This document shows, in pieces, positions 2,431-41,713 of a DNA stretch of 53,383 bases. The number at the start of each line of letters is the position of its first letter. The stretch's first letter is position 1. The notes under the pieces are model-generated. The model was not told the DNA's origin. It was given only the letters and a program-made list of their open reading frames with translations, and did no database searches. Origin of the DNA: Escherichia phage FXie-2024a; the sequence record PP107930.1. One strand, 5' to 3'. The position numbers were made by a program, and so were the translations under genes.

Positions 2431-3477
2431 TTAAGCCACTCGTTTCCAGAGGGCGTAGTAGTGAACGGAGTTGGTTACATCAAATGCCGTACCGCTTCCG
2501 GTTGAGGTTGTGGTGTTATTATTTGGGCCACCTGTAGTGAGGGCAGTCCCACCAGTGTTAGCAGCACTAGAGCCACCTGACGTGCCTTTAAAGTTGGGCA
2601 AGTCTACCTGGTGGAAGTGTACCCCACTTTCGCTAGCCGTACCATCCATGTCATGGTAGTGGTCGCCAGCCCACTCAACGTTACGCGTACCCACAGAGCC
2701 AGAGTTGGAGCCAGCAAACAGTACAGGACTGACGTTAGCGTTGTTACCAAACGTAGCTGCGTGGGTGTGGTTCCCGTTAGTTGTGGTACGTCCCGTCACT
2801 GCGTGGGAGTGTGCACCGTTGGGCGTTGAGTTGTGAAGTGGATGCTTGTGGTCTATGGCATGAGTATGCGTCATAGAGTGGGTGTGAGAGGCAATACCGT
2901 GCGTGTGGTTCTGCATTCCGTGAGTGTGTCCAGGAATGTTTGGCACAGCAAGAGTTACAGTATCAGAGCCACCAGTTGAGCCAATCTGACCTTCGGTTGT
3001 ACCAGCTTCGGCAGAGGTAGCAGCACGGACAGAACGACCATCGACAATTTGTTCCCACACAGTTCCTGTGAAGGAGTTGTTTGGGTTGGTGGCATTCTCG
3101 AACTTTAACACAATTCCAATTGGGTAGATGGCGTTGTAGATATTGTTGGCATTAATCAGTTCTCTCCACGGGGTCCAAGTCCGGACCCCAGCTCCCTGGT
3201 CTTGAGAACGAATCCACATACGGAGGTTGCCGAAGTTTGTATATCTCTGTATACAGTTGTCAGAAGTACCGGCATGGGTGAGAAGAACTTCCAAGTTGCC
3301 AGCTTCGGCACCAGCAGGGTATCCATTTGCCACTGTTGCGTTTGCGTTCTGGTTCTGGGGGAACGTACCTACATTATCTCTTCCCCACATATCGTTGATG
3401 TTCTTGGTCCCCAAGGAATCTACACTTTTAGCATAGTGTTCCTGGACCAGCGCATCTAAAGAATAACCTTTAGCCAT
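2431..3477 (-). CDS. Tail fiber protein, distal tip with His-x-His repeats
   Basis: 348 aa; run of HTHGMQNHTHGIASHTHSMTHTHAIDHKH resembling metal-binding HxH motifs of T4-type fiber tips; Gly/Thr-rich C-terminus. Confidence 0.6.
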   Translation of the reverse strand: MAKGYSLDALVQEHYAKSVDSLGTKNINDMWGRDNVGTFPQNQNANATVANGYPAGAEAGNLEVLLTHAGTSDNCIQRYTNFGNLRMWIRSQDQGAGVRTWTPWRELINANNIYNAIYPIGIVLKFENATNPNNSFTGTVWEQIVDGRSVRAATSAEAGTTEGQIGSTGGSDTVTLAVPNIPGHTHGMQNHTHGIASHTHSMTHTHAIDHKHPLHNSTPNGAHSHAVTGRTTTNGNHTHAATFGNNANVSPVLFAGSNSGSVGTRNVEWAGDHYHDMDGTASESGVHFHQVDLPNFKGTSGGSSAANTGGTALTTGGPNNNTTTSTGSGTAFDVTNSVHYYALWKRVA

Positions 3478-3485
3478 TTTGAATC

Positions 3486-4868
3486 CTATAAAGTTGAAAC
3501 TTGCTCATCTGTCAGTGCAGAGTTCCACATTCTGAACGAGCGTAGTGCAAACTCGGAGCTTGTGGCACTCAACAGTGACCAAGCTGATAAAGTAGGTCTG
3601 CGGTTATTTATACCTAATGCTGGCAAAGTATGTTGGATAAGCAGAACACCATCTATGAATATTCTTGCATAACCCCCGGATACAACTACACAGACCCTAA
3701 ACCACTTCCCTGTTCCCGGGGCACCAATCACCTTGTAAGTGTTGTTCAATACACCGTCTTGCCTTCTGTATCGCAGAACTATTCCACCATCGTAGCAAAC
3801 CAAAACCTTAAGAACTTCCATACCAAATCCGCACTGCCAGTTCCCATCTGCTGTTCCAGTGTGTGAGATACGCTGAAAGTCTGCACAAATGGTAAATTTA
3901 CCATTTGTGTCTGCTATCTGAGTGTTATTGTACCAGTTAAACCCGTTGCCTGTGGGGTTCGCATAGGACAGCACCCCACCCAAAGCTTCGTTATAATTTG
4001 GTACGTGATCGAAAGAGTTAAACACGCCATTACCCCGAATAATGTTCAAAGATTTAATCAAGGACATTTCGTATGACGGAGGTACGTGTGCATAGTTTGG
4101 TTCTTGTGCAGCCTTCAAACCTGGGAAGGTAAGCTCTGTAACAATCTTAGACTTACTTGAAGTGGTTCCAGTCTCGGCAAATCCTGTTGTATCATTGATA
4201 CCTATCAGGTAGTTACCATTCTTCAACCACAATCCATCACCGCGCAGTATTTGAGCAGTCTTGGACTCGTTGAAGTATGCAGTTGGCATAGTCACCGGAC
4301 CAGTATATGTCCCGCCAGTAACAGGAACAGCACCAACCTGAACAGCAGTCAGTTTGTGTGGGTTGTTGTAATCTGTTACGTGGGCCTGTACAAGAGCACG
4401 GTAGCTTGCAACTAGTGAGTCCATTTCTGCTCGGTTATATGTTCCAACCTGTGCAGCAGTTACTTGGTGTGGGTTTGCTCGGTTTGCAATATGACTGTTA
4501 ATTGCAGATACAATAGAATCATAGTTTGCACGAGATACCTGAATGGCGCTCGGACTCCATTGAGATGGGTTGGCACTTGGTGCCAGAGTCTTGCTTGGGT
4601 TTGTTACAGTACAAACATAAATAGTTTTGTTTGTTTCGTCCCAAGCCAAACTGCCAACACCGTAAGAAACATCACCACCCCATTCGAAGATTCCACGCTC
4701 TGCCTGAGCAAGCATTGTGGTATCAACTTTGTATTGGAGATAGTTTAAAACTTGGTAGGTTGGTATTTCAGCAACCCAACCTTGGAGATACTTCGCATCT
4801 CCTGGGTCACGTCTGGCTACACTGTTATTTGAAGTCCATACGCGGTTTAGTTTAGGACGTAATGCCAT
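3486..4868 (-). CDS. Tail fiber protein
   Basis: 460 aa; fiber-type repeats (NPHQVTAAQVG, NPHKLTAVQVG, GGTYTGPVTM) shared with the adjacent 381-aa protein. Confidence 0.55.
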   Translation of the reverse strand: MALRPKLNRVWTSNNSVARRDPGDAKYLQGWVAEIPTYQVLNYLQYKVDTTMLAQAERGIFEWGGDVSYGVGSLAWDETNKTIYVCTVTNPSKTLAPSANPSQWSPSAIQVSRANYDSIVSAINSHIANRANPHQVTAAQVGTYNRAEMDSLVASYRALVQAHVTDYNNPHKLTAVQVGAVPVTGGTYTGPVTMPTAYFNESKTAQILRGDGLWLKNGNYLIGINDTTGFAETGTTSSKSKIVTELTFPGLKAAQEPNYAHVPPSYEMSLIKSLNIIRGNGVFNSFDHVPNYNEALGGVLSYANPTGNGFNWYNNTQIADTNGKFTICADFQRISHTGTADGNWQCGFGMEVLKVLVCYDGGIVLRYRRQDGVLNNTYKVIGAPGTGKWFRVCVVVSGGYARIFIDGVLLIQHTLPALGINNRRPTLSAWSLLSATSSEFALRSFRMWNSALTDEQVSTL

Positions 4869-10215: not shown

Positions 10216-11309
10216 TAGAATGACTCCATAGCCATGCCACTATTGGCATACATTTCTTGCCACGCAGCCTCTTTACCACCCATCATAGTATTGCCACCGA
10301 TTATTGCAGTGATGGAAGTCTTATAATCGATGGCGTGTGTAGAACCTTTATGAACAACTTCCATGATGAAGTATTTATCTTCAACAGCCCAACGAAATAC
10401 TGATTGGTCAGTGTTGAGAACAATGCCATCACCTTGTATTGCAGTCACACCATTTGCAAGGAGTTTTGTTCCCAGAAGTGGTGACACATCCAGAATCATA
10501 CCTGGTTGGTATGTTGGGTTCAGGAAGGTGTTAAGTGTGTAGGTACAGATTCCAGCGACAGGGTTCCCAATAACGGAGTTGGCATCCAACTTGATTGGTT
10601 CACGGTCTTTGGACATTCTGTTTACTGCATCTTTATCCCCAAACGTATCTGGGAATATTTGAATCTCACCAGTGGTTACAGAGAACAGGAGATTGTACTC
10701 TCCTAACATTGCACGAAACTCAATCAAGAATGTATCATGGAACACACGACCACGAGGCATAACTTGATTCATTACTCCATCTTCTACTCCAAACGTGGAA
10801 ATGGTATTAAAGCCATAGTCCAAACACATAGAGCGAATAGCATCCTTCAAGGTTGACCCAGGGGGAATCGCTTTCATTTGGGAGAATTTAGTTGATGCAC
10901 CATACGCTTTCGAAATACAGAATAATTGCGTAACATGTTCAGGGGGCTTTCTATAGCCAACTGCGTTAGTAATTACACCAGAGAAAATCGTAGGTAGTGA
11001 AGTATTTACTTCGATAACATTGCTGGAAGATTCTGACCTTCGGTAGTTCTTAACGCCACCAGAAGAAGCACTACGTTCATCTTCCGCATACCCTGCACGA
11101 ATTTCGATATACATACCTCCGTAGGACTTATCCTGCAAGAACTTAACTTCTTCCAAAGACAAGTTGAACAGAGTTACGTTTGCCGTATCGGCGGGCCACC
11201 CAACAGTAGAGCGAACTTCGAAATCAATTCGATGTGATTTGAATATCGTTTGCACACTTGGGTCATCTTTACGAGAAACAATTATCTCAACTCTGCGCAT
11301 CCACGGCAT
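10215..11309 (-). CDS. Tail protein (hub or late-control-type)
   Basis: 364 aa ORF immediately downstream of the tape measure gene. Confidence 0.4.
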   Translation of the reverse strand: MPWMRRVEIIVSRKDDPSVQTIFKSHRIDFEVRSTVGWPADTANVTLFNLSLEEVKFLQDKSYGGMYIEIRAGYAEDERSASSGGVKNYRRSESSSNVIEVNTSLPTIFSGVITNAVGYRKPPEHVTQLFCISKAYGASTKFSQMKAIPPGSTLKDAIRSMCLDYGFNTISTFGVEDGVMNQVMPRGRVFHDTFLIEFRAMLGEYNLLFSVTTGEIQIFPDTFGDKDAVNRMSKDREPIKLDANSVIGNPVAGICTYTLNTFLNPTYQPGMILDVSPLLGTKLLANGVTAIQGDGIVLNTDQSVFRWAVEDKYFIMEVVHKGSTHAIDYKTSITAIIGGNTMMGGKEAAWQEMYANSGMAMESF

Positions 11310-11382
11310 TGCGATATACCTATTGAAATTAATACACGTTCAACTAATGTAAAAGGAAAGCTGGGGATTTCTCCCCAACTCC

Positions 11383-14300
11383 TTATCTTCTTTGTTGCGC
11401 ACCATTGTGCATGTTCATTTGCTGAGTCACAGTCTGACCGCCAGGAACAGCTACAGTGGCAGATGCAGTTTGGTTATTAACCTTCGCATCAATCTTCACG
11501 TTAACAGTGGTTTGAGTTTGACCATAGGAGATACCATTCCGTGTGAATCCAGTCGCACCTTCATCCAAGCCTTTGGAAGACTTAGCCCAATCACGATACG
11601 CTTTAACACGTTTCTGAGCCTGAGCCGGGACAGCACTGAGCCAATCCATTCCAAACTTATCGACAGCCTTGTCAACAGTTCCAGCACCATCCGTATAAGC
11701 AGCCATCGCTTTCTCATGGTCGCCACCGAATCGTTTATACATTGCATCATAGTATTCACGACCAACACGAGCATCCTCTTTAGGACTTCCGTCAGAAGGT
11801 TTGATTCCATAACCTGGGTCACGGGCAGTAGAAGGAAGAACCTGCATGATTCCACGAGCACCAGTTGGGCTTGTAACTCGTGTACCATCCTTGTTATATT
11901 CCTTGCCACCAGACTCTTCACCAGCAATGAAATCATAAACGTTTGCAGCAACTTGTCGGGCTTGACTGTAGCCAGAGTTAGCAGCACCAGCAGCAGTGCT
12001 TCCAGCTTCGAACAGTGCAGCACCATGAGATAACACACTTTGTGGCACGTTATACCCTGGCAGAAGCTGTGCGCGCTCCACCTGCAACATTTCTGACTGA
12101 GCCATACCTTCGGCAAAGTCGGAGTTTCTACCGCTTTCTACCACCGAACCTGCTCGCTCATGGCTGTATTCCGTGCGGTCGAAGGCACGGGCCATGCCAT
12201 CCAGCCCAGCCATCTGCGCAGCACCAGCGATACGGGCCTGACTCCAGCCACGTTCCTTGCCTCTTTCCTGCATGATGCGAGCGAGGGCCACAGGGTCGCC
12301 GCCAGTCGAGCGAATATCACCTATGGTGAGCAATCCCCTACTGCCACGAACAATGTTCACAGCGGCGCTGGGGTCGCCGTTAAGCATGGTGTTGTAGGCA
12401 CTATGTGTGGTTTGATTCAAACGGCTAGCTTGCTGGGAGTTTAGCCCCAACATTTCCAAGCCTTGTGACATGGAAGAGTATTCATTTGGATTAGCTACGC
12501 CAGCATCAAGAGATTGACCAATGTAGTCATTCATGAAGCCAGCAGCTTCGTTACCAATCTGAATTGCACCAATACCAACTGCCGCCATACGTCCAGCAGG
12601 AGTTGCCATCAATGCTTGCATCACACCGTTTGATGCAGAAGATAAACTCCCACCAGCGATGCCAGAAGCAAGTGCACCACCTGCCTTTCCGAAGTCATCA
12701 CTAAAGTTTCCACCCGCCGAGAAATATCCTCGACCACCGCCGCCACCACTGCCGCCACCATTTGCTGCATCGAAACGTTCCTGATTCCAACCAACAGTGG
12801 AATCTTGTTTGCCATCGAAATCGGCATCTACGCCAGAGATACCTTTCTGTTTGTTCTCTTCCTGAGCAGCTAAGATACCACGCTTAACAGAAAGGGCCAT
12901 TGAGTCATTACTTCCATCACCAACTGTGGCCGGGAAGTTCTGCTCGTGCATAACAAAGTTTGGTTTGTAGTCAGAAGTGCCGCCAGGATTTGGGTCGAAA
13001 GAAGAACGAGAACCAATGAATGGGTCTTCTGACGTACCAGCAGCAGGACTAAACCCACGATTAGAGCGTTGCTTAACATCCTTCCAGATGCCATCACCCA
13101 TCACTGCACTACGAGCACCAGCGACAAGTTCTTCTCGGTCTAGTGAAGGATTGTTTCTAACAAACTCTCGCCCAGCATCAAGGCGACCAAGCACAGAATC
13201 AAGACGATTTCGGTTTCTTTCGTACCATCCTTCGTCTTTCTCAATCCATTGCGAACGGGTTTCGTTGTTGATAGTTTGAGAGAACAGAGCGCGGTTACGA
13301 CCAGATACATGCATACCAAATTGAACTTGGTCCATGTAGTCTGGATGGTCGCCACTAAGAAGGTCAGCAAACTTACCAGCCCTTTGCGGATTCTTATGCT
13401 CCCAAATGGCGTCATCACCAATAAGGCCGTCAGGAGAATACATAAAGGCGGGATAGTTATCATTTGTTATAGCGCCAGTTTGAGCAATATTGAATCCAAA
13501 TTCCTTACTTACGCGAGCGCGTGCTTCTTCTTCCGTTCTGTGACCATCAGCGAACATCTTCTTAGTGAAATCGCTTGGCTCTTTACTTCTGGATATTCCA
13601 AGTTTGTCAACCATCCCAGCCCAAGGTCGGGTGTATGCGTTGTTACCAAGGAACGTACCAACTGTAGAGCCAGTTACGTCGTACTGCTTACGAAAGTCTA
13701 ACCACTCTTGACTACCTTGCTCAAGGTCATGGAACTTGACTGGGGACTCGGACTTTCCAGTTCCGTAGTCTGATACATCCCTGAATCCTGCACTATCCAT
13801 GTTTGCAATCGCAAGTTCTTCACGACGCATTCTAGCAGAGTTCCAGTTGGTTGCTTCACCAAGTTGTGCAGTAAACTCTGTAGAAGTTGATTGTGCATCC
13901 TTAACAATCTTCTGTGACGCAGACTTCATTTCTGGAATGCGAATAGGTTCAGCATCCATTTTGTCATAAGTGTTTTCGAGAATTGTTCGAACACTTGATG
14001 CAGAATATGAAGGTTCGTCAGCAAGCTCTGATTTAAGGTTGGCATACCCACTACGAGCTTCTTCCAAATCTGCATAACGAGTAGCAGAATCCATAATCAT
14101 GTCACGGTCAGATACTTCATGACGCGTGTTGTTCATTCCGGTTTTGCCAGAGTAAACTTTAGCAGCAGACTTAACAGCCTCGCTGATAGATGAATACAAT
14201 GCCTTGCTTGGTTCGCTCCAGCCAGTGCCACCAGTTAATGATGCAGTGAGTGAGTATTCTGGATTGATGCCAGAACCATAAGAACCAAGAGGTAAGCCAG

Positions 14301-36806: not shown

Positions 36807-37417
36807 AGAAGACTACCTTATATGTGATTGAGGTTGCGGCCTTTACGCGGCCAACGTGCCATTAATGCTGGCAAGACAGAGCTAACGTTCTCAAGCACTT
36901 TGGCGAGGATGTTCTCGGACACTGTTTTAGGAAGTGACCACCTGAACGTCTCGTGTTCATTACGTTGACTTTACGGAGTCATCGGAGCTTCGTTCTCAAG
37001 CACGCCGTTTTCTTCTTTGGCCGGAGTCAAGCCGCAAGCCTTTGTCTCGGTGGACTAACCTTCTCACACTAACGATGTGTAGCGGGACGTTCCAATCCTA
37101 GGAGGCAGCAATTTTAATTGTTATGCCCAGAGCAACGTGCGGGCTTTCACCGACTTCCTCGAAAGGTTGGGTTCACGTTATTTATAGTCGCGCATCCCAC
37201 TCGACTGCCAAATGTTGTTGATGCGATGGCGAGCATTTGTTTCACTGTACTTGTTTATAGATGCAACAGGCTCATCTTGTTCACTCACTGTCGGGTAAGT
37301 TTAGAACACTTTTGTGCCCACGTTTCATTGTGGACTAAAATCTGTGTTTTGGTTTCGCGTGACAAAACTTTTACTTCTGCAACATCCAAATAGATTGGTT
37401 GTGCAATCAAGCAGTAG

Positions 37418-40237: not shown

Positions 40238-40491
40238 CTTTTTATTTCACCGAGGCTGAACTTTGGACCATCTTCGAGAATATATTTAATATCATATTCC
40301 CAAAAACCATCTTTGTGAGACTTACTCAAATAGTTTAATTTAGATGTGCCATTGTAATACCATGACCCACCAATAAGTACGAAGTGTAGTGTTTCTTCAA
40401 CATTATCACTAAAAGCTCTTTCAACATTTCTTAACGTCAAAACTTTAGCAGAATGCTTACGAACCATTTTGCAACTCCTTAATTTTGGCAA
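40150..40491 (-). CDS. Hypothetical protein
   Basis: 113 aa early ORF. Confidence 0.35.
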   Translation of the reverse strand: MPKLRSCKMVRKHSAKVLTLRNVERAFSDNVEETLHFVLIGGSWYYNGTSKLNYLSKSHKDGFWEYDIKYILEDGPKFSLGEIKRCFYHGPNKSIQIATREWTSNQRVYGELF

Positions 40492-40666
40492 TTAAGTCGC
40501 GCATAATTTTGGGTCCAATAGCCAAGTCACCAGTCATGTCACCAATGTCACTGCCTATTGCTTCCGCATTCATCTCCCAACCTTCAATAAGTTCTAACAA
40601 TTCTTCAATTGTGTAGCCTTTAAACTGAAAGTTTTCGTGATTAATTACACCATATTTTTGAACCAT
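40457..40666 (-). CDS. Hypothetical protein
   Basis: About 70 aa from MVQKYGV (ATG 40664..40666) with GGAGAG ribosome-binding site; the annotated longer N-terminus runs into the ORF-free structured region. Confidence 0.4.
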   Translation of the reverse strand: MVQKYGVINHENFQFKGYTIEELLELIEGWEMNAEAIGSDIGDMTGDLAIGPKIMRDLIAKIKELQNGS

Positions 40667-41310
40667 AGGAACTCTCCAATTTTCGATTCGGTGTTTGTGA
40701 CTTCTCTTCTCATCTTTTGGCCTATGAAACAGGCCACAGAGTAGCGCAGGAAGGCCGAAAATCGGACCACTGCCTACCGTTTGTGTCAATTCTGGATAAC
40801 TGCATTGGCGAAGGGTTACTCCCGTTAGGGTGCGACCCGCGCATCATAACTGCATAGCAGTCTGGCAAGCTGCGGAGGTCACAGAGGCTTTGCAACCCTT
40901 CCCAATACATTCACCCAACCTACCCGCTTTGGTATAGCTGGCGGCGCGGTTTTGTGCGGATTATGCCACTCTAAGCCCTGTTTGCCCGACTTCCTCGGAG
41001 CACCAGCAGCTTGTGGCACAAACCTATTTTCGAATGACTAACATAAGCATGAGGCACAACCCTCTAATTATTCAGCCCTAACAGCTTGCTTATTCAGTAC
41101 CAATTCATCCCAATACATCGCTATAACAAGTGAACAGCTTTCTGCGAAGAAGTATTCCGGCCCTTTGGCCTATGTTAAAAGTTAAATGTATGTGATGGAA
41201 ACATTCCATCGAAAAGAACTTTGTAGAACGAATCGAACGTTCTCACACGCCCTGGTACCAGACGGACTACCTAGTTACAAAGTTCTTATCTGATGTTGTT
41301 TCAATTCCAA

Positions 41311-41487
41311 CTAATGTCGAATGTCTTTCTTGCAAACAGGACAAGTGATAAATCTATATGCGAAATATCCTCGGTCATTCTTCCCTGTGTATATCTTTAA
41401 GTCTGAGAATTCATAAGACACAACAGAAGCACATAACCGACATTGGCGTGTGAAGGTTACTGTATCTTTTTCCAGAACTTTAATCAT
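41311..41487 (-). CDS. Zinc-ribbon protein
   Basis: 58 aa from MIKVLEKD; CRLC...CPVC; ribosome-binding GGAG lies inside the upstream 18-bp motif copy. Confidence 0.45.
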   Translation of the reverse strand: MIKVLEKDTVTFTRQCRLCASVVSYEFSDLKIYTGKNDRGYFAYRFITCPVCKKDIRH

Positions 41488-41713
41488 TTCATCTCCAATT
41501 AATGTTTCAGAATTATTCCAATATTCCAAATAAAAAGAATAATAAGAATAAATTAAATAAATGAAGAAAGTGCTTGACACCCATTTGGCGATAAGTGTAT
41601 AATGCCTTTCTTCCCTAAGAGGTCAGAATCAAATCCCACTAATGTTTCAGAATTACGCCGAAGGCCAATGCGAGCACAAAACCCGCTTGGCACTTCGACG
41701 GAACAGCTTGGAA

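Follow-up and report, generated by a model that had tools for sequence, protein, structure and literature searches.

A large modular structured RNA conserved among Cleopatravirinae phages at the boundary of the early genes and the next operon

Results

A structured RNA under purifying selection

The sequence record PP107930.1 of Escherichia phage FXie-2024a, analysed here as a window of 53,383 nucleotides (nt) that corresponds approximately to the whole phage genome in reverse orientation, contains at 40667-41311 a stretch of about 645 nt which very probably specifies a functional structured RNA of a new family. The structure of the RNA read from the minus strand is under purifying selection, and both of its modules are maintained by compensatory substitutions across phages of the subfamily Cleopatravirinae (family Chaseviridae). 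A reading made from the sequence alone (hereafter, the sequence-only reading) had taken the stretch for a likely structured non-coding RNA or, alternatively, a long regulatory leader; a strand-specific fold, covariation and the absence of a conserved open reading frame (ORF) speak for a structured RNA, whereas the variety of genes found after it in different phages makes a leader specific for one gene unlikely. Like all neighbouring genes, the element is encoded by the minus strand, and since the flanking genes are on that strand it is described 5' to 3' as 41311 to 40667. It is bounded by a promoter motif that overlies the stop codon of the upstream gene and, at the 3' end, by the ribosome-binding site of the next gene, whose ATG is at 40666; the 5' end is placed from the promoter motif and may lie up to about 15 nt further in. 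The positions of all features are collected in Table 1.

The minimum free energy of the sense RNA is -222.7 kcal/mol, against -192.4 ± 4.1 kcal/mol for dinucleotide shuffles (z = -7.37), whereas the RNA of the plus strand gave z = -1.66 in the same test. For the homologues in Aeromonas phage phiA050 and Erwinia phage Faunus, the sense z-scores were -6.7 and -4.3, and the free energies of the sense strand were 34-43 kcal/mol lower than those of the antisense strand (-267 versus -233 and -218 versus -175 kcal/mol).

Covariation was scored in three alignments. Alignment A1 is formed by 18 distinct Carltongylesvirus-type sequences, and its RNAalifold consensus has 168 pairs in 26 helices, with 98.6% of the cells holding standard pairs. 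Double changes were found in 28 of the 168 pairs, compared with 12.1 ± 2.0 in column shuffles (0 of 500 reached 28) and with three to six in slid controls, in which the partners were moved by 1-3 columns; the covariation score was 0.135, against 0.078 in the shuffles and 0.015-0.040 in the slid controls. Many of the A1 pairs are invariant G-U, which supports the sense strand, since the other strand would have C-A mismatches there. In alignment A2, a cross-genus alignment of the core three-way junction, 17 of the 37 pairs covary across genera. Alignment A3 covers the base of a big hairpin and the hairpin that follows an invariant CAAACG; here 17 of the 27 pairs covary, 90.3% of the cells are paired (74.5% in shuffles), the covariation score is 0.558 versus 0.265, and none of 500 shuffles matched the alignment on all five measures. 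As an example, the first hairpin has AGAACUUUGUA/UACAAAGUUCU in the window and CUGUGGGUGCUCU/AGAGUGCCCCACAG in phiA050.

Among close relatives, whole hairpin tips are swapped for unrelated, hairpin-forming sequence (A1 columns 38-95, 235-300, 465-512 and 570-605 are examples) while helix bases and junctions are invariant, the pattern expected for a functional RNA with a neutral or fast-evolving periphery. Three unpaired motifs, GGGCUGA(A)UAAUU in the junction, CAAACG and GUCACA, are invariant across genera. A comparison of related phages for structural conservation, which the sequence-only reading had suggested, thus brought out abundant covariation both within and between genera.

The region does not contain a conserved coding sequence

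In line with the sequence-only reading, which saw no credible ORF in the stretch, all ORFs that overlap 40667-41310, on both strands, have at most 62 amino acids (aa). No ORF over the region is kept in frame across the relatives; short ORFs recur only in near-invariant sequence, and their ends and frames vary from phage to phage. The insertions and deletions that distinguish the region from its homologues in other genera are of 1-2 nt, not multiples of three. Small coding sequences (CDSs) for a 'hypothetical protein' are annotated over the RNA region in the GenBank records of PYps3T, PYps23T, PYps16N, 4HA13 and Fifi44 (see Table 1 for examples by locus); they have no counterpart in other phage records and are probably spurious. 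No real protein-coding gene, the finding that would have spoken against an RNA, was thus encountered.

The stretch had also been described as GC-rich. This holds for 40700-41000, with a GC fraction of 0.538 (rank 22 of 2124 among 300-nt windows, that is, the top 1% or so), but not for 41001-41310 (0.41), nor, to any great extent, for the region as a whole (0.470, against a window mean of 0.437; rank 135 of 1055 windows of the same size).

Anatomy of the RNA

The RNA consists of two modules. The 5' module comprises a long hairpin, a local hairpin, a UUUUAAC linker, small hairpins, the core three-way junction and a hairpin that we call hairpin B; the 3' module comprises the big hairpin with a 26-pair basal helix, the invariant CAAACG and its hairpin, a last hairpin and GUCACA, with the ribosome-binding site and AUG of the next gene beyond it.

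The distal part of the long 5' hairpin is swapped between phages, and in phiA050 and 4HA13 it has a wholly different sequence with the same pairing. In the window it includes the palindrome GAACGTTC, to which the sequence-only reading had drawn attention; it is indeed present at 41235 and is the stem of the sense-strand hairpin GAACG-UUCGAUU-CGUUC. This hairpin resembles a T-arm, but an identity as a tRNA-like element was rejected, as the hairpin is missing in the Pel53- and Faunus-type versions and no tRNA model matches. The local hairpin next to it has the versions GAUGG/CCAUC, GAUAGC/GCUAUC and GGUGGA/UCCACC in the contig L008, in Fifi44 and Y2, and in Myduc, respectively. Its GAUG can alternatively pair with the 5' CAUC at 41292-41295, closing the long hairpin, and the three segments concerned change together, as CUAUC/GAUAG/CUAUC in Loessnervirus and CCAUCCC/GGGAUGG/CCAUC in L008 (loci L008, L040, L043 and L174); as judged from these sequences, the two mutually exclusive pairings of GAUGG could form a conformational switch.

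The three-way junction is the most conserved element of the RNA, and its motif was found in all six Cleopatravirinae genera examined. It is built from a closing stem, the hairpin AGCU-GUUAG-GGCU, the junction strand GAAUAAUUA and a hairpin GAGG...CCUC. A kissing or pseudoknot interaction of the GUUAG loop with the UUUUAAC linker was considered, being attractive by eye (UUUGG/CCAAA in Faunus, GAUAG/UUAUC in 4HA13), and rejected: the best complementarity is no greater than with shuffled linkers (p about 0.4-1.0). The stem of the pentaloop hairpin that caps hairpin B shows compensatory changes (CCGA/UCGG, CUGA/UCAG, UGAA/UUCA).

In the big hairpin, 10 of 19 basal pairs covary across genera, and no fewer than four unrelated sequences occur as its variable tip (40835-40879). 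The CAAACG motif is invariant in 13 sequences of many genera, and in the hairpin that follows it five of six pairs covary, with 98.7% of the cells paired. The last hairpin is not terminator-like, since no U-run follows it. A second copy of GUCACA is present in the 5' hairpin loop of the Loessnervirus and L008 versions. The AGUUCC located between ribosome-binding site and AUG (40668-40673) is complementary to GGAAUU at the 5' end (41303-41308), and the two can form consensus helix 1, a helix of 6 base pairs (bp) beside the AUG; being 99% paired yet almost invariant, with no compensatory change, helix 1 is uninformative, and it is absent in Faunus.

Table 1. Positions of the RNA, its parts and neighbouring features (window coordinates unless a locus number, L, is given).
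Feature	Position	Strand	Remarks
Whole structured non-coding RNA region	40667..41311	-	~645 nt; fold z, 168-pair consensus, 43 phage records
5' long hairpin	41198..41302	-	consensus helices 2-6; 12 pairs with double changes
Hairpin GAACG-UUCGAUU-CGUUC with GAACGTTC	41225-41243	-	distal part of 5' long hairpin
Local hairpin GAUGGAA-UGU-UUCCAUC	41194..41210	-	sequence comparison only
Conserved single-stranded linker AACUUUUAAC	41174..41183	-	in window, L008, Fifi44, Faunus, Myduc
Core three-way junction	41030..41103	-	17/37 pairs covary across genera
Hairpin B (GGUUUGUGCC...GGCAUAAUCC)	40958..41024	-	consensus helices 15-16, 99-100% paired
G-R-R-A-G pentaloop hairpin	40985-40999	-	caps hairpin B
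Big hairpin, 26-pair basal helix	40792..40918	-	consensus helix 19, 100% paired
Invariant CAAACG, then hairpin	40740..40783	-
Last hairpin GGCCU...AGGCC	40714..40739	-	consensus helix 25
Invariant GUCACA near 3' end	40696..40701	-	alignment A3
Shine-Dalgarno region AUUGGAGAG and AUG of downstream gene	40664..40680	-
Phage-promoter motif ACATTAGTTGGAATTGAA	41300..41317	-	over TAG stop (41313-41311) of 58-aa gene
Second tandem promoter copy	41494..41514	-	before 58-aa gene; exact match
Third tandem promoter copy	41634..41654	-
Upstream 58-aa CxxC...CxxC gene, phrog_2834	41311..41487	-	TAG stop at 41313-41311
69-aa gene MVQKYG.., phrog_21299	40457-40666	-	directly 3' of RNA
Extra ~130-nt module	L001 ~3395-3530 (SA91KD); L024 8160-8300; L051 100-240; L033 330-400		compare L005 1765-1850
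Annotated small CDSs over RNA region	L002 1788-2096; L037 607-903; L038 908-1051; L004 1312-1847; L040 1499-1663

Distribution and modularity

The window belongs to a Carltongylesvirus-like phage and encodes a T7-like RNA polymerase, a primase/helicase, a DNA polymerase and a terminase, all on the minus strand. A BLAST search of the region against phage genomes returned 50 records, all 50 of Cleopatravirinae and mostly of Carltongylesvirus, including phiEcoM-GJ1, ST32, SA91KD, Mangalitsa and the Yersinia PYps phages; in 43 phage records the alignment spans 80% or more of the query, with 83-94% nt identity. The RNA is better conserved than its neighbour genes: in most of the phages with 83-94% identity in the RNA, a downstream 106-aa protein is only 54-63% identical, and in phiA050 the RNA core shows 76% nt identity against 35% for the anti-restriction protein.

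Versions of the RNA occur in six of six Cleopatravirinae genera examined, in phages of E. coli, Yersinia, Erwinia, Pectobacterium, Proteus and Aeromonas. The order anti-restriction gene, small gene, AT-rich region with promoters, non-coding stretch and next operon is found in every lineage, the non-coding stretch measuring 823 nt in Sabourvirus 4HA13, 643 nt in Faunusvirus Faunus and 727 nt in phiA050; the locus is also present in Loessnervirus Fifi44, Aioli, Y2 and Papaline, in Suwonvirus PP101, in Myducvirus Myduc and in the IMG/VR contigs L008 and L051. A scan of IMG/VR with the core motif returned Chaseviridae-like contigs only (one new lineage, L008) plus chance matches, and a metagenome scan two close relatives and three chance matches; a 15-mer, CAGCGGAGAATCCGC, was too unspecific for use in such scans. 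In the subfamily Nefertitivirinae, neither a match nor a comparable gap was found in the one genome examined, that of Vibrio phage VPs20. One record of the set, PP952070.1 ('Staphylococcus phage Pel53', stated host Staphylococcus hyicus), is a typical Carltongylesvirus-like genome, with identities of 87.5% for the RNA and 93% for the RNA polymerase, and its host label looks doubtful.

The genes on either side are variable. Downstream, at least six unrelated N-termini follow the RNA (MVQKYG.., MIRKHSAKV.., MFKRFAQ.., MSKQAIP.. and MSTEKTC.. among them); upstream, the 58-aa gene is optional, and a non-coding module of about 130 nt, or nothing, stands at its place in other phages (SA91KD, TH37 and MLP1 have non-coding DNA instead of it or lack it). 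As both neighbours vary, the RNA is autonomous of them. The MVQKYG.. gene is variably present even among close relatives, with the breakpoint exactly at the conserved AAAUUGGAGAGUUCCUAUG junction; in phages without it, the RNA is joined directly to the MIRKHSAKV.. gene. In several phages the extra module (GAGUCCACUGCA...AAGUCUGGACAACUUGG), with a promoter motif on either side, occupies the position of the 58-aa gene; the first hairpin of phiA050 has a tip of related sequence, and from these occurrences the module looks like a mobile RNA module.

Genes can also be accommodated within the RNA. In Myduc, a 74-aa gene separates the two modules, and in Papaline (L042 ~1875-2250) an independent HNH-type ORF (CxxC...HH) lies between them, with a promoter-like motif and then the 3' module, intact, behind it. 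In phiEcoM-GJ1, everything between hairpin B and the 3' strand of the big hairpin, including the 5' strand of the latter, has given way to a 133-aa ORF (11029-11430; L003 1584-1985). The annotation of this ORF reads 'putative exonuclease SbcC', yet its match is to PHROG 2340 'endonuclease' and it contains HNH-like CxxC...HH motifs. Such internal endonuclease ORFs were seen only in GJ1 (phrog_2340) and Papaline, and the window does not have one. In Loessnervirus and L008, a promoter-like CAUUAGUUGGA is located at the start of the 3' module.

Promoter motifs and the AT-rich region upstream of the RNA

The 5' boundary of the RNA coincides with a putative phage promoter. ACATTAGTTGGA, at 41317-41306 on the minus strand, overlaps the TAG of the 58-aa gene, and the copy at 41317-41300 confirms that the 18-bp motif of the sequence-only reading (extended consensus ACATTAGTTGGAnnTGAA) covers the stop codon at the upstream edge. 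The core of the motif, ACATTARTTGGA, occurs nine times in the window, with all nine copies on the minus strand and 0.8 expected, and the annotations of phiEcoM-GJ1 and SA91KD mark an identical 20-mer as a putative phage promoter. The densest cluster in the window, three copies in 350 bp, is found just upstream of the RNA. The RNA had been placed inside the early operon; it adjoins the early genes (anti-restriction protein) but is not simply inside their operon, as it lies at the boundary with the next operon, directly behind the three tandem motifs.

Between two of the motifs lie AT-rich repeats (TTATTCTTATT, TGGAATATTGGAATAAT; 41515-41605) and, within them, a perfect σ70-type promoter (TTGACA-18-TATAAT, 12/12 positions) at 41574-41603 on the plus strand, opposing the direction of all genes. 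It is the only conserved promoter on the opposite strand, and it is upstream of the RNA and fires away from it. The order phage promoter, σ70 promoter, AT-rich repeats, phage promoter and RNA recurs in Faunus, phiA050, L008, Fifi44 and Y2; this layout recalls the primary origin of T7; alternatively, a small antisense RNA could be driven from it.

The RNA does not belong to a known family

The Rfam scan that the sequence-only reading had suggested found no matching family. At the gathering score, Rfam 15, which includes GOLLD, ROOL, OLE, group I and II introns, RNase P, 6S RNA, tmRNA, tRNA, riboswitches and small ribozymes, gave no match in the whole window or in 13 homologous loci (69.8 kb), and at E ≤ 10 the region had two chance matches only, both to eukaryotic families; because of this result the RNA is not regarded as a member of a known family. 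ARAGORN detected no tRNA or tmRNA in the window, and an RNase P-like GAGGAAGUC is merely the loop of a small covarying hairpin. A host mimic or prophage remnant was rejected, as 5,426 complete E. coli genomes contained no blastn match. Against 185,579 representative bacterial and archaeal genomes, the core motif gave 36 matches, none of which extends past the pattern; judged by eye, most are in apparent coding sequence. Full-text searches returned no description of the RNA in the literature on non-coding RNA or transcriptomics of Chaseviridae and Carltongylesvirus, or in lists of large phage RNAs.

With its 645 nt, lack of coding capacity, 168 predicted pairs of which 28 covary, covariation across genera and occurrence in six genera, the RNA has the properties of the large ornate RNAs. 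Like GOLLD, ROOL and OLE, it is over 500 nt long and has many covarying helices, multi-way junctions and conserved single-stranded junction sequences; GOLLD and ROOL are also phage-associated, and to our knowledge no function has been established for either. It differs from all three in that it has no sequence or structure match to any of them in Rfam 15, in its occurrence in virulent phages of Gammaproteobacteria with their own RNA polymerase and in the absence of an adjoining tRNA cluster.

Group I introns, too, are structured phage RNAs of several hundred nt with an endonuclease ORF inside in some genomes. However, no exons could be joined across the present element, since the upstream gene has its own TAG or is absent and the downstream gene varies; moreover, there is no model match, and the position of the ORFs is between modules or instead of them, not in a peripheral loop of an intact core. 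A leader of the riboswitch or attenuator type, specific for one gene, is unlikely too, since the downstream gene is not constant, and both the modularity of the RNA and the variable flanking genes argue against it. A search for an expression platform revealed only the near-invariant 6-bp helix beside the AUG and, in the 5' module only, a possible alternative pairing. As it does not qualify as a group I intron or as a gene-specific leader, we file the RNA as a new family in the descriptive class of large structured non-coding RNAs.

A second ORF-free block

The sequence-only reading had noted a word shared with another ORF-poor block. This word, ACGTTCTCA, is present at 41237 and at 36885, in essence as stated (36886); at the second position given, 36979, there is no exact copy, the nearest being a shorter TGAGAACG at 36991. 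In addition, a 12-mer, CGAGGAAGTCGG, is common to 37150 and 40986, so that the block has both CGAGGAAGTCGG and TGAGAACG in common with the RNA. The block (36807-37284, sense on the minus strand) lies between a lipoprotein-like (o-spanin-like) gene and the MDKISIRAI gene, and patches of it are extremely conserved across genera, being 94.9% identical with Sabourvirus 4HA13 over 214 nt and 91-97% identical with Loessnervirus and Pantoea phages over 38-55 nt. Neither strand of the block gives a fold signal (z = +0.77 and -0.22), for which reason we rejected it as a paralogue of the RNA; it may be a DNA-level or protein-binding element.

Discussion

The account that we favour, and regard as probable, is that of a large, modular structured RNA gene whose functional product is the RNA itself, processed and acting freely. 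The T7-like RNA polymerase of the phage would transcribe it strongly when expression passes from early to middle genes, in a transcript that starts with the RNA and runs on into the downstream genes. The RNA would then be cut from the mRNA, most plausibly by the host RNase III at the 26-bp helix, which would free a 5' RNA of about 400 nt or more; the abundant freed RNA may serve as a scaffold or decoy for a host or phage factor, and would not be a switch for one gene. That the RNA stands alone and acts in trans is plausible at best, and the further proposal of a new class of large, highly expressed phage RNA that is released and acts in trans, as scaffold, decoy or replication pre-primer, is put forward more tentatively still.

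Several observations weigh against this account. Since promoters of Chaseviridae have not been experimentally identified (ICTV profile of the family, PMC12842549), the 5' end of the RNA is only inferred, and the processing by RNase III and the function in trans are likewise what we infer. Each module, in every phage seen, ends immediately before a start codon, which fits a generic role as a 5' untranslated region. At least the big-hairpin part is dispensable in the laboratory, because phiEcoM-GJ1 propagates with this hairpin destroyed. Lastly, the neighbouring genes all belong to PHROGs of unknown function, and no partner protein was identified among them.

A generic leader, that is, a structured 5' untranslated region of the first middle-gene transcript that acts in cis only, by shielding transcripts which the phage polymerase makes fast and which carry no ribosomes from RNase E and Rho, by providing T7-like RNase III sites and/or by tuning translation of the following gene, is the alternative that survives best, although we consider it unlikely. 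There is no terminator-like site between the 3' end of the RNA and the next gene, the RNA adjoins a conserved Shine-Dalgarno region and AUG in every phage, each of the Myduc modules stands directly before a gene, and the sequence between ribosome-binding site and AUG has a possible pairing partner in the 5' GGAAUU. The phages of the T7 group, with a polymerase of the same type, likewise have structured untranslated RNA behind promoters and before genes, and the long, nearly perfect 26-pair helix is of the type that RNase III cuts, as at the T7-group sites. The RNase III sites of T7, however, are single irregular hairpins of roughly 50-60 nt, whereas the RNA described here is ten times larger, with at least 10 helices and a conserved three-way junction; its size of about 650 nt, the junction and the invariant unpaired GAAUAAUUA, CAAACG and GUCACA far exceed what stabilizing hairpins need. 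Moreover, the downstream gene is not conserved, and helix 1, the pairing next to the AUG, shows no covariation and is lacking in Faunus.

It is improbable that the element is a replication-origin RNA, a structured pre-primer whose fold controls R-loop formation or primer maturation as in RNA II of ColE1. The T7 origin uses polymerase transcripts from tandem promoters, and both the tandem promoters with the AT-rich repeats, a T7-like layout shared by five relatives, and the T7-like RNA polymerase, primase/helicase and DNA polymerase of the phage would suit this function; RNA II, of about 550 nt, is also a long structured transcript beside an AT-rich region and tandem promoters, of comparable length. 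However, genes and HNH ORFs are tolerated within the present element, and its covariation reaches the ribosome-binding site of the next gene, which fits a persisting RNA rather than a consumed primer. Furthermore, transcription from the conserved σ70 promoter would lead away from the RNA, so that an antisense regulator overlapping it in the manner of RNA I is lacking, a second difference from ColE1.

More improbable still is an anti-defence decoy, in which a structured RNA present in large amounts would titrate or deceive a nuclease or immune sensor of the host. The RNA lies downstream of the anti-restriction gene at a distance of two genes, within the part of the genome concerned with host takeover, it is partly dispensable in GJ1, and the wholesale exchange of tips between close relatives is the turnover expected of loci engaged in an arms race; but it has no similarity to E. 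coli sequence or to any known RNA family, including tRNA, CRISPR repeats and toxin-antitoxin RNAs, and the invariance of the core across hosts as unlike as Escherichia, Erwinia, Proteus and Aeromonas is easier to reconcile with a conserved target than with a strain-specific defence. That there is no RNA gene, and that the stretch is a decayed or unrecognized protein gene or a self-splicing intron or mobile element, can hardly be upheld: small CDSs are annotated over it in several GenBank records and GJ1 and Papaline carry an endonuclease ORF inside it, as group I introns do, but the frame is not conserved, the indels are not in threes, the substitutions in helices are compensatory, the Rfam models of introns, ribozymes and RNase P give no match, not even at E ≤ 10, and there are no flanking exons.

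The RNA is of interest for several reasons. Non-coding RNAs that are large, structured and rich in covariation are rare, and for the majority, GOLLD and ROOL included, no function has been established, in part because the organisms that carry them are hard to manipulate. The present RNA, previously undescribed and conserved across Cleopatravirinae phages, is carried by virulent phages of E. coli that are easy to study; one of them, phage flopper, was isolated on K-12 MG1655, and in such phages deletions, compensatory mutagenesis, the use of rnc mutants, RNA end mapping and pull-downs are routine. If our account is true, it would be the first large structured RNA with a function of its own in easily engineered virulent coliphages. 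Its recognition also corrects annotation, as regards the spurious small CDSs in many GenBank records and the inserted endonuclease labelled 'SbcC' in GJ1, and it draws attention to the early/middle boundary of Chaseviridae, with its tandem promoters, AT-rich repeats and a host-type promoter that is conserved, as a hitherto unstudied regulatory hub.

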